A DNA stretch of 64,000 nt from an uncultured Planctomycetia bacterium (GTDB lineage Bacteria > Planctomycetota > Planctomycetia > Pirellulales > Thermoguttaceae): NCBI GenBank assembly GCA_963815695.1, contig CAWFIG010000022.1, positions 96,648-160,647 on the forward strand. Reading direction: 5' to 3'. The stretch's first letter is position 1; every line of letters begins with the position of its first letter. Under the pieces are notes generated by a model, which saw only the letters and a program-made list of their open reading frames with translations, was not told the origin of the DNA and made no database searches. Position numbers and translations under genes: made by a program. This document shows positions 34,674 to 36,148 of this stretch, one piece after another.

Positions 34674-34708
34674 CGGTTAATCCCTAATCCCTAATCCCTA
34701 ATCCCTCT
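34674..34708. repeat. heptamer tandem array (TCCCTAA)x3 plus 2 degenerate units
   Basis: cggttaa tccctaa tccctaa tccctaa tccctct. The last unit overlaps the pgi stop codon (34708-34710). Confidence 0.9.
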
Positions 34709-36120
34709 CACTTCCCCCGCAGAATCGCCGTCATGTTCTTCTTATACGCCTCGACGCCGGGCTGGCCGTAGGGGTTGATGCCGACCAGGCGGCCTTCGAC
34801 CACCGTGGCCAGCATGAGCATCTGGAAAAGCTGGCCCAGCGAGCCTTCGTCCAGCCGCGGCAGGCGGATGGTGGCCGTGCGGCGATAGTCCTCGGCATAG
34901 GCCTGGTTCGTGCCGGAATAGGCGGCGCGGAGAATCTCGGGCAGCGTCTTGCCGGAGAGCGCGTTGAGCTTGTCCTGGTCGAAGTCCGACCGCTCGATGG
35001 CGATCCAGCTCGCGGTGCGGCTGTCTCGACGACGAGATTCGTGATGAGCTTGTCGCGGCGGCCTTCCTGGTGCTGCTGGCCGCGGGAATGGAGGTCGCGG
35101 GTGTTGACGACCGTCAGCGGCGTGGCGCCCTGGCCGTTCTTGCCGAGACTTTCGGACAGAAGTTGGTCGTACCACAGCCCGACCGATTCGAGGCCCTTGC
35201 CCCAGGTGGAAAGCACGCGGATCGTGGCCCCGCGGCGGGTTTCCATCAGCCGCGACATGCCGACGTAATCGAGCACGGGGTTTTCCAGCGGCGGCGCGGT
35301 GCGGAATCGCTCGTTCATGGCCGCCGCGCCTTCGAGCAGGTGCTGCACGTCGAGGCCCATCACGGCCGCCGGCAGCAGACCGACGGCGCTGAGGACCGAG
35401 TAACGCCCGCCGACGCCGTCGGGAATGGGGAAGATGTCCGTTGCAGCCCAGCGCGCTGGCCAGGTCGTGCAGCCGGCCCGAGTCGCCGGTGATCGGAATC
35501 ACGCGGCGGCGGAACTTCTCCACGTCGCCGCCGCACGATTTTCGCAGGGCGTCGAGGAAGATGCGGAAGGCGACGGCCGTTTCCAGCGTGCCGCCGCTCT
35601 TGCTGATGACGATGATGCCCCAGTCGTCGCTCCCCTCGACCAGATCGAGCAGCCCCTGCACGGCGTCGTTGTCGACGTTGTTGCCCTCGAAGTAAATCCG
35701 CGGCCGGCCGCCGCGCCGCTGCCGGGAAATCTCGTTGTGATACGGATGGCAGCACGCCTCGAACAGCGCCCGGGCGCCCATGTACGAGCCGCCGATCCCG
35801 AGCACCACCACGCGATCGACCTCCTTCGCCAGCCGATCGCCGGCGGCGGTGATCCGATCCAACAGCGGCCGCTCTTCGTCCAACAGCCGCTCGGGCAGGT
35901 CGACGAAGGCGGCGTCCAGCGGCTGCAACTCCTCGGGCACGCGGCACGCCGCGCTTGTAAGCCGCCAGATTGTCGAGCACTTCCTGCCGCGCCGCCGCCA
36001 GCCGCGGGACAAGCCATTTCAGATCGGCGTCGACAAGGCCCGTCTGCTGGGCGACGGCGGAGCGTCGTTCGGGGCGATCAGACCGGAATAGTCGTAAGTG
36101 ATGGGGGCTAGGGGTTGCAT
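34708..36120 (-). CDS. pgi: glucose-6-phosphate isomerase, multiple apparent frameshifts
   Basis: Start MQPLAPITYDYSGL (ATG at 36118-36120). ORF 34708..36012 (VVVLGIGGSYMGARALFEA...GIIVISKSGGTLET). ORF 34731..35363 (LSTWGKGLESVGLWYDQLLSESLGK...TPLTVVNTRDLHSRGQQHQEG). Tail GINPYGQPGVEAYKKNM. Confidence 0.85.
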
Positions 36121-36148
36121 GGGAGTGGTCAGTGGTTAGGGGTTAGGA
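36121..36148. repeat. heptamer tandem array (GGGAGTG GTCAGTG GTTAGGG GTTAGGA)
   Basis: Begins at the nucleotide after the pgi start codon. The last two units are the inverted form of the TCCCTAA array at the other end of pgi. Confidence 0.85.

Follow-up and report, generated by a model that had tools for sequence, protein, structure and literature searches.

The pgi locus and its two heptamer arrays

The stretch of DNA considered here, hereafter the window, comprises 64,000 nucleotides (nt) from an uncultured Planctomycetia bacterium (assembly GCA_963815695.1, contig CAWFIG010000022.1, positions 96,648-160,647 of the forward strand), a planctomycete, and has a G+C content of about 64%. On its minus strand it carries pgi, the gene coding for glucose-6-phosphate isomerase (34708-36120), both ends of which touch short tandem arrays of a seven-nucleotide unit; the nature of these heptamer arrays is the subject of this report. 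The coding sequence was delimited by three-frame translation, comparison with the proteins of relatives and DNA alignment, which place the ATG at 36118-36120 and the TGA at 34708-34710, the MQPL start and the terminal ILRGK of the relatives' proteins being found at the matching places. The product shares 84-90% amino-acid identity with proteins from uncultured Pirellulales/Thermoguttaceae-like assemblies.

Downstream of pgi lies a perfect minus-strand array (34678-34706), reported by Tandem Repeats Finder (TRF) as (TAATCCC)x4.1 with 100% matches, which reads (GGGATTA)x4 in the sense of the gene and thereby displays four G3 tracts. It is 1 nt away from the TGA, the next, degenerate unit (TCTCACT) overlaps the stop, and the sense strand across this point reads TGA-GA-GGGATTAGGGATTAGGGATTAGGGATTAA. 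At the other end, a minus-strand leader array with a degenerate period of 7 occupies 36121-36148. Its plus strand is GGGAGTG GTCAGTG GTTAGGG GTTAGGA, and its sense strand, TCCTAAC CCCTAAC CACTGAC CACTCCC directly followed by the ATG, is G-poor and devoid of a Shine-Dalgarno (SD) motif. This array passes a lag-7 test requiring 16 of 21 matches, for which the window gives 11 hits and shuffled sequences 0-1. The presence of an array against each end of pgi was already recognised in an earlier reading of the letters alone (the sequence-only reading), and the opposite polarity which it ascribed to the two arrays is likewise present and non-random. Its further statement that a TTAGGG-type unit is common to both ends stands in part only: the 5' array contains the exact TTAGGG once (36136) and TTAGGA once, while what the two ends do share is an agreement at 6/7 bases, across two units only.

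Comparisons were made with seven close relatives provided with called genes (L161-L167; 142 kb, 85% coding), with L001, the nearest genome of a species-representative collection, whose pgi is 77% identical, and with L081 and L084, the only useful additional relatives arising from a metagenome scan. A divergent apgM-like gene (ATG at 36432) neighbours pgi on its 5' side. The leader of this gene contains a plus-strand CCTTCCC array detected by TRF (36350-36375), 56 nt upstream of the ATG, and an AAGGAG Shine-Dalgarno motif is located between the array and the start; a C-rich tract occurs at the equivalent position in L081, L162 and L163. A consensus scan revealed neither a sigma-70-like site around pgi nor an intrinsic terminator at its stop. 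Finally, searches of the whole window with Rfam (gathering thresholds) and ARAGORN gave no matches, which excludes the arrays as part of a known RNA or of a tRNA-linked element.

The quality of the sequence has to be kept in mind. A frame-tracking hidden Markov model indicates that the reading frame shifts every 150-400 nt in nearly all genes of the window, and DNA alignment to the intact 469-amino-acid relatives locates 5-6 single-base indels in pgi, mostly insertions of 1 nt and not confined to homopolymers. Such pervasive indels look like those of an error-prone, unpolished long-read-type assembly rather than of pseudogenes, and pgi was judged unlikely to be a pseudogene since single-base indels affect all genes of the window alike. 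Because the window carries these frameshift indels, array-to-codon offsets of 1-2 nt are uncertain. The arrays themselves are not an assembly artefact, orthologous arrays being present in independent assemblies, both long-read ones from the European Nucleotide Archive (ENA) and others from the Joint Genome Institute (JGI).

Polarity of heptamer arrays at the ends of open reading frames

The pgi arrays do not stand alone. The window contains 19 arrays of period 7, compared to 1-2 in dinucleotide shuffles, whereas periods 8-12 give 0-2 arrays, periods 4-5 do not rise above the shuffles and period 6 gives 16 against 3-12. Their units are diverse, including CCCTGAC, CCCTCTC, CCCTAAT, TCATCCC, GCCCACT, TACCCAC and CCTTCCC, besides the AT-rich AATGCAA and AGATTGC. 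In terms of copy number, the three perfect arrays of the window reach 4.1, 4.3 and 4.1 units and others 2-3, 5.9, 8.9 and 14.6, the sample being small. Ten period-7 arrays were also found in 21 kb of L001, and no heptamer excess over background was detected at the distant pgi loci L002-L012 and L082-L092.

Nearly all of the window arrays lie at the boundaries of open reading frames. Their contexts were read in six frames, leading to a curated set of 14 arrays of G/C type near the ends of open reading frames (ORFs). A polarity rule emerges from this set: the sense strand is C-rich and G-poor before starts, and G-rich at or after stops. In symmetrical terms, at either end of an ORF it is the G-rich strand whose 5' end faces the ORF. 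The rule is followed by 13 of the 14 arrays (one-sided binomial P of about 0.001), namely those beginning at 8456, 9850, 27679, 33235, 36121, 36350, 49728 and 52136 before starts, and those beginning at 7225, 34678, 41995, 49865 and 52611 at or after stops. In the same line, 22 of 24 G/C-type arrays located within 60 nt of a gene end in L161-L167 obey it, the two others being ambiguous, without any clear violation. More precisely, 14 of the 15 period-7 trailers that follow stops in the relatives are G-rich in sense, and the sole C-rich one is pgi's own array viewed from the convergent neighbour; convergent pairs provide each gene with its own G-rich-sense trailer, as illustrated by the arrays at 13497 and 13562 of L161. 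Besides polarity, the arrays are tightly positioned. Most of their bases (988 of 1470) fall in the intergenic 15% of the L161-L167 DNA, and the median gap between an array and the nearest ORF end is 2 nt, compared to 19 nt for random placement within the same intergenic intervals (0/2000 permutations).

A bias linked to strand or replication was considered, given that the plus strand is the C-rich one in 11 of the 14 window arrays, and rejected: each of the three remaining arrays stands before a minus-strand start, and in the relatives the two polarities are found next to each other. The supply of stop codons in three frames was rejected as a general purpose as well, since it is achieved by GGGATTA and GGGATGA but not by GGGGTCA or GAGAGGG.

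The inverted bracket seen around pgi follows from the presence of an array at each end of the gene together with the general polarity rule at ORF boundaries. The two pgi arrays are independent members of a genome-wide class, and the bracket is a by-product rather than a device specific to pgi. A second doubly flanked gene exists in the window (about 49926-52134, minus strand), with a TACCCAC leader (52136-52175) and a GGGATGA trailer (49865-49926), i.e. with differing units; two such genes are thus seen where about one would be expected by chance, according to a rough estimate based on about 55 genes, 9 start arrays and 6 stop arrays. The sequence-only reading had instead located a recurrence of the pgi bracket around the four-helix-bundle gene at 52135-52645, which proved mistaken. 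This frameshifted minus-strand gene (MAVQSYQDLVVWQKA..., ATG at about 52572) lies between the arrays 52611-52640 and 52136-52175, with the G-rich-sense array upstream and the C-rich-sense array downstream, so that the polarity is opposite to that at pgi, and the two arrays belong to the neighbouring genes, overlapping or abutting the stop of the upstream one (52635-52637) and the ATG of the downstream one (about 52134). The gene (52200-52572, minus strand; MAVQSYQDLVVWQKAMDLV...) resembles those coding for 23S rRNA intervening-sequence proteins and sits between one trailer and the next leader, as if inserted into a pre-existing intergenic region.

Leaders and trailers were further compared in terms of predicted behaviour. 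No array leader of the relatives (0 of 13) has an SD-like tetramer at -4 to -18, while 44 of the 115 remaining leaders do (Fisher p=0.004), and the predicted minimum free energy over -40..+20 averages -3.5 kcal/mol for array leaders and -13.9 kcal/mol for the others (Mann-Whitney p=2e-7). For the pgi leader itself, no pairing is predicted between about -38 and the AUG, and the gap to the start is 0-14 nt at pgi and at the arrays 52136, 49728, 33235, 8456 and 27679. Regarding the other end, the pgi trailer combines four G3 tracts with 4-nt loops, and ViennaRNA assigns it a G-quadruplex (G4) fold of -18.1 kcal/mol, compared to -12.6 kcal/mol without G4. This (G3N4)4 motif bears out, in silico, the earlier description of the 3' array as G-quadruplex-prone.

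One pair of neighbouring arrays deserves separate mention. In L165 (13843-13928), the trailer (TAGTGGC-type) and the leader (GCCACTA-type) of two co-directional genes are near-perfect reverse complements, and could form a long hairpin; the equivalent site of the window (49728-49926) is without such complementarity.

Descent of the pgi arrays and competing explanations

Both arrays of the window pgi are orthologous to arrays of the relatives, the DNA identity across pgi reaching 89% with L164 and L161. The leader aligns to CTGACCCCTGATCCCTGACCCCTAGCCCCTGACCTCCG-ATG, which represents the arrays of CCCTGAC/CCCTAGC units seen in L164 and L161, and the trailer to GGGGATTGGGGATTAGGGATT, which is a GGGGATT array in L164, while L167 has GGGATTA/GGGATTG. 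Orthology notwithstanding, unit, copy number and presence vary. From these alignments, the 5' array descends from CCCTGAC/CCCTAGC units and the 3' array from GGGGATT units; the CCCTAAC of the window is a point-mutated form, and its 6/7 resemblance to the trailer is a matter of recent drift. Ten pgi loci are readable at both ends. The leader array is present in seven (window, L161-L164, L166 and L167) and the trailer array also in seven (window, L163, L164, L165 as a remnant, L167, L001 and L081), with both present in four, where independence predicts 4.9; the 3' array is missing in L161, L162 and L166, and the 5' array in L165. The 5' and 3' arrays of pgi are gained and lost independently.

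Two further elements accompany pgi in the relatives. L166 contains an insertion sequence (IS) element with a DDE_Tnp_ISAZ013 transposase between apgM and pgi (8707-9831), pgi having retained its degenerate C-rich leader. In L163 (about 11440-11470), L164, L165, L167 and L081, the pgi trailer is succeeded by a GC-rich stem-loop, ATAGCCGG(N)..AAC..(N)CCGCGG, whose version in the window is degenerate (34640-34675). The same stem-loop precedes many SBP_bac_10 (DUF1559-type) genes, for instance at 2228-2271 of L161 and 6325-6368 of L162, where its 3' half overlaps a GGAGGG/GGAAGG ribosome-binding site.

According to the sequence-only reading, the two ends of a pgi transcript could pair and bracketed genes might move as units. 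The corresponding explanation, in which a matched inverted pair clamps pgi through end pairing, a circularised mRNA or a mobile cassette, is largely refuted, and there is very little chance that it is correct. It is true that the C-rich leader and the G-rich trailer can pair in isolation (with 40 nt, -29.0 kcal/mol against -21.7 +/- 3.6 kcal/mol for a shuffled trailer) and that their units match at six of seven bases over two units. Nevertheless, the 5' x 3' RNA duplex of pgi (-25.6 kcal/mol) is only the 4th of 14 partners when all C-rich and G-rich window arrays are combined, trailers of other loci pair better with the window pgi leader (-36 to -41 kcal/mol), and the cognate pair is never the best of its row or column in the duplex matrices of any locus. 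The differing ancestral units and the independent gains and losses weigh in the same direction, as do the location of most arrays at one gene end only, the number of doubly flanked genes close to chance and the opposite polarity of the second example that had been cited. As for movement, the divergent apgM-like neighbour lies beside pgi in the window and likewise in each of the ten relatives for which the 5' flank was inspected, and pgi is not a mobile cassette because this neighbour is conserved. Partial complementarity, independent arms and a constant neighbour also set the locus apart from a matched inverted-repeat cassette such as a miniature inverted-repeat transposable element (MITE) or an integron-like one.

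The explanation favoured here, with moderate confidence, is that nothing sets the pgi arrays apart from the other polar heptamers at ORF boundaries, a class found throughout the lineage, and that these arrays act in RNA with separate roles at the two ends. The arrays would be transcribed as untranslated regions. At the 5' end, a G-poor, non-folding leader would take the place of the SD region and keep the AUG accessible for SD-independent (S1-type) initiation. At the 3' end, G-tracts would directly follow the stop codon and, where four G3 tracts are available as at pgi, may form an RNA G4 or a G4 on the non-template DNA strand, which could mark or protect the 3' end or assist termination. Slippage would create and alter the arrays, so that units drift, while selection would hold position and polarity.

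Several observations weigh against this explanation. The array at 13005 breaks the polarity rule, and arrays also occur in frame within ORFs (truA, NPCBM and cbiX-like genes). The tallies from the relatives include orthologous positions and are thus not fully independent, amounting to about 22 independent positions with one violation, and the gene models of the window are approximate owing to pervasive frameshifts. Some trailers of the relatives have GG tracts only (GTGGCTA, AGTGGAG), and the window as a whole shows no enrichment in G4 motifs (16, compared to 13 +/- 3 for local shuffles). Because several 3' arrays hold GG tracts only, a canonical G4 cannot be the universal principle, and G4 as the sole explanation was dropped in view of the absence of global motif enrichment. 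Finally, the function proposed is inferred, the inclusion of the 5' arrays in the mRNA is presumed, and Rehm et al. (2015, PLoS One; PMC4692102), who described comparable heptamers in other bacteria, could not find a regulatory role for them.

The main rival, although unlikely, replaces the two RNA-level roles by a single rule operating on DNA and RNA polymerase, the arrays being polar transcription insulators. A polymerase exiting an ORF, in sense at the 3' end or in antisense at the 5' end, would make G-rich RNA, leading through a G4 or an R-loop to pausing or termination, whereas a polymerase entering an ORF would make C-rich, G-poor RNA which, when untranslated, resembles a loading site for Rho (rut). 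The symmetry of the polarity about the ORF fits this view, and a similar remark, irrespective of ORF orientation, was made by Rehm et al. (PMC4692102); the separate G-rich-sense trailers of convergent genes (13497 and 13562 in L161) and the absence of a canonical intrinsic terminator after pgi are also in its favour. On the other hand, arrays within ORFs are mostly G-rich in sense and would terminate transcription inside the truA, NPCBM and cbiX-like genes, many units have no G3 tracts, the close abutment of the ATG and the replacement of the SD region rather indicate translation, and the Rho and R-loop parts are hypothetical. Next after insulators comes the absence of any function, which is somewhat less likely still: the arrays would be intergenic repeats born from slippage, and selection would only purge harmful orientations, for example G-rich, SD-like or G4-forming leaders. 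Drifting units, varying copy numbers and the losses at the 3' end (L161, L162, L166) and 5' end (L165) of pgi agree with such neutrality, as do the lack of arrays in the distant planctomycetes L002-L012 and the over-representation of heptamers among bacterial repeats, possibly due to polymerase slippage (Rehm et al., PMC4692102). However, purifying selection alone would leave unexplained the G-rich bias of trailers (14 to 0, apart from pgi's own array viewed from its neighbour), the hugging of ORF ends (median of 2 versus 19 nt) and the persistence of positions at 77-90% protein identity despite unit turnover.

Improbable to a greater degree is the idea that the arrays are binding sites, in 7-nt steps, for a protein recognising single-stranded nucleic acids (S1, cold-shock or CsrA-like), which would exert post-transcriptional control over many genes. 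A strict 7-nt period is at odds with the helical geometry of double-stranded DNA, the ribosome-loading site is where the arrays are located, and a proposal of this kind was put forward for start-adjacent heptamers by MacGregor (2015; PMC4679880). Against it, the diversity of units (CCCTGAC, CCACTAT, TCATCCC, GAACCCT, GCCCACT) argues against a single sequence-specific reader, the housekeeping genes that the arrays flank have unrelated functions, and the reader protein is hypothetical. A broader speculation, which we hold to be doubtful, is that the arrays constitute a polarity-coded punctuation of genes, with one rule and one machinery (RNA polymerase and Rho through G4 or R-loops, or a reader of single strands in 7-nt steps) common to Xanthomonas, Nostoc and Pirellulales, and standing in for the SD motif and the intrinsic terminator of many genes. 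Leaders and trailers, within or between neighbouring transcripts, might then also pair and add a regulatory layer to such a system.

Related repeats and further elements of the window

The closest known counterparts are the heptamers GGGAATC of Xanthomonas and GGGGA(C/T)T of Nostoc PCC 7120 reported by Rehm et al. (PMC4692102). Those repeats are intergenic, with a preference for four units, the fewest with which an intramolecular G4 can form; they are transcribed, and G4 formation was shown for them in vitro. Their positions are conserved between relatives while the repeats themselves vary, and they are unlinked to phase-variable genes. Upstream of an ORF, at a distance of up to about 50 bp, their G-rich strand is the non-coding one; it is the coding one when they lie within about 50 bp of a stop or overlap it. 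Head-to-tail heptamers with a G3-4 tract are found in both cases, the pgi trailer of L164 being GGGGATT, from which the GGGATTA of the window is one substitution away, and GGGGTCA, GAGAGGG and GGGATGA representing further G-tract units. Heptamers are over-represented in the window, the intergenic bias was found in L161-L167 and the polarity rule in both, the flanked genes are housekeeping ones, and length and sequence vary at conserved positions. The three perfect arrays of the window come close to four units (4.1-4.3), in a small sample in which others range from 2-3 to 14.6. Differences exist as well: the hosts, uncultured Pirellulales/Thermoguttaceae-like planctomycetes, belong to another phylum, many more families of units are found together (CCCTGAC, CCACTAT, TCATCCC, GCCCACT, GAACCCT and the AT-rich AAATTGC), some units have GG tracts only, and arrays abut the ATG at 0-8 nt. 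Moreover, while the repeats of Rehm et al. (PMC4692102) are under-represented between divergent ORFs, those described here also occur in divergent regions, such as pgi/apgM, which harbours both a pgi and an apgM leader array.

Direct repeats of TAACTGA that abut starts at which SD motifs are rare were described in marine Beggiatoaceae, cyanobacteria and Bacteroidetes (MacGregor 2015, PMC4679880). The planctomycete leaders similarly display heptamers a few nucleotides upstream of SD-less starts, without a functional theme among the downstream genes, and one L167 leader even reads AACTGAA/CACTGAA. In contrast to the one dominant unit of that system, the units here are CCCTAAC, CACTGAC, GCCCACT, TACCCAC and others, not TAACTGA, and neither a class of trailers after stops nor a rule opposing G-rich to C-rich polarity was described there.

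Short tandemly repeated repetitive (STRR) heptanucleotides of heterocystous cyanobacteria, such as CCCCAGT, lie in tandem between genes and contain a C4/G4 tract, and a genome harbours several families of them. Repetitive extragenic palindromic (REP) sequences and bacterial interspersed mosaic elements (BIME) are short repeated palindromes often found after stops, for which a role in mRNA 3'-end stabilisation or in termination has been proposed. The arrays resemble STRR sequences, in agreement with the introduction of Rehm et al. (PMC4692102), in being intergenic tandem heptamers with several families per genome, and differ from REP/BIME, which are palindromic hairpins, in being strand-asymmetric tandem repeats; the hairpins GCGAAACCGCAAGCGGTT and ATAGCCGG..AAC..CCGCGG adjoin arrays here as separate elements. 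The resemblance to telomeres (TTAGGG/TTTAGGG) that had been pointed out turns out to be coincidental and is one of letters only: the GGGATTA unit contains TTAGGG and is G4-prone, but the array consists of four internal copies between two genes, the unit is GGGGATT in relatives, and the orthologous arrays lie inside contigs of 0.03-1.1 Mb. A telomere-like signal was also rejected on the basis of counts, TTAGGG occurring 7 times on both strands of the window, below the approximately 23 expected from composition, and almost all within three arrays. Within planctomycetes, over-representation of a G-pattern is on record for Isosphaera (Huang and Mrazek 2014, PMC4060949), and no report of such arrays in Pirellulales was found in the limited collection of literature searched.

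What is new is the extension of the known polar heptamer repeats to planctomycetes, the turnover of units at conserved positions, and the link between leader arrays, the absence of an SD motif and unstructured starts. That an unrelated, uncultured clade follows the placement and polarity already known from elsewhere argues for selection rather than a quirk of two taxa, and this argument is strengthened by arrays keeping their position while the unit sequence turns over. The clade offers natural experiments, in that some orthologues have a leader or trailer array where others lack it and that array leaders are SD-less. These could open SD-independent initiation and G-tract-dependent 3'-end formation to testing. 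Regarding annotation, gene-bracketing inverted repeats in such genomes are not evidence of mobility, and the arrays may be mis-called as N-terminal extensions or in-frame Gly-rich linkers.

Among the other leader arrays of the window, (ATCCCTG)x2.4 (8456-8472, plus strand, TRF) is C-rich in sense and lies 14 nt before the dtd ATG (8487), a TCATCTC/TCATCCC array (9850-9878, plus strand, TRF) contains no G and lies 41 nt before an ATG at 9920, and (ACTGCCC)x2.4 (33235-33251, plus strand) is 8 nt before the ATG (33260) of a gene coding for an ABC-transporter ATPase, whose orthologues in L164, L165 and L163 have GCCCACT/CCACTAA arrays at the equivalent place. A degenerate minus-strand array, GGGGAGG CGATAGT AGGTAGT GGGTCAG on the plus strand (27679-27715), is 0 nt from the ATG of a tRNA-binding-domain gene and is directly followed by the hairpin GCGAAACCGCAAGCGGCG; the orthologues of L001, L162, L163 and L164 have C-rich-sense arrays at the ATG too. 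Two more minus-strand leaders were reported by TRF. The 102-bp AGTGGGC/AGTCGGC array (49728-49829), C-rich in sense, stands 5 nt before an ATG at 49720-49722, and (GTGGGTA)x5.9 (52136-52175; TACCCAC in sense and C-rich) lies 1 nt ahead of the gene at about 49926-52134; with the alternative ATG at 52085, the distance would be about 50 nt. The exception to the rule is a minus-strand CCCACTA array (13005-13025), which is G-rich in sense 33 nt upstream of an accA-like ATG (about 12971).

Trailers, all on the minus strand, comprise a short array with the sense GATGAGC (7225-7240) overlapping the stop of a pdxA-like gene, (CCCTCTC)x4.1 (41995-42023, TRF; GAGAGGG in sense) 9 nt after a TAG at 42033-42035, (TCATCCC/TAATCTC)x8.9 (49865-49926, TRF; GGGATGA in sense) overlapping the stop of the gene at about 49926-52134, and a degenerate CTACCCT/ACTACCC array (52611-52640), G-rich in sense, overlapping the stop at 52635-52637 of the minus-strand gene upstream.

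Arrays that keep the frame (57 or 63 nt) inside ORFs were observed in truA, the NPCBM gene, a cbiX-like gene of L001 (7339-7403), L161 (1819-1858) and L164 (5789-5829). They are G-rich in sense and code for Gly/Ser/Arg-rich inserts or linkers. The truA array (17213-17269, minus strand), of CCCTGAC type and 57 nt long, encodes a Gly/Arg-rich insert, and the frame is open across it from ...RTVFELS to ...ITIEIEADGFLYNMVRAIVG. The NPCBM-domain gene contains (CTGACCC)x4.3 in frame (40908-40937, minus strand, TRF; GGGGTCA in sense), at an orthologous place in three genomes, the orthologues of L161 and L164 being called straight through the equivalent array.

Another family of heptamers, AT-rich (AAATTGC, AATGCAA, AAATTCG), also occupies conserved positions. 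It is found at 41872-41958 (AATGCAA and AAATTCG, minus strand, TRF; between a G-rich trailer and the next gene) and 30885-30922 of the window, 14811-14866 of L001, 4980-5022 of L162, 6003-6053 and 15298-15409 of L163, 4829-4892 of L164 and 7190-7245 of L167. One of these sites lies between the G-rich trailer of a squalene-cyclase-like gene and the NPCBM gene, and another after a mazG-like gene; the composite of G-rich trailer and AT-rich arrays recurs in L162, L163, L164 and L167. With TTGCA every 7 nt, the AT-rich heptamers may be promoter-region DNA.

Several hairpins complete the picture. The small conserved hairpin GCGAAACCGCAAGCGGTT(TC) adjoins heptamer arrays, usually in the order hairpin, C-rich array, ATG, at 49829-49846 (plus), 27716-27733 (minus) and 63677-63694 (minus) of the window, at 14909-14926 of L001 and in the leaders of the tRNA-binding-domain genes of L161 and L164; with up to 3 mismatches allowed, it has 4 matches in the window against 0.18 expected. 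At 59225-59350 (and 59501-59521), the hairpin GTCCCGCCTGCCGGGCGGGAC is repeated three times at a spacing of 44 nt inside an outer inverted repeat, CACCCAGTAG ... CTACTGGGTG, upstream of a plus-strand gene starting at about 59590, thereby forming a REP-like cluster. Finally, a 68-nt unit present in 2.4 copies at 38966-39125, each with a CCACCGGC...GCCGGTGG hairpin, is situated in a stretch (38850-39730) without coding signal.

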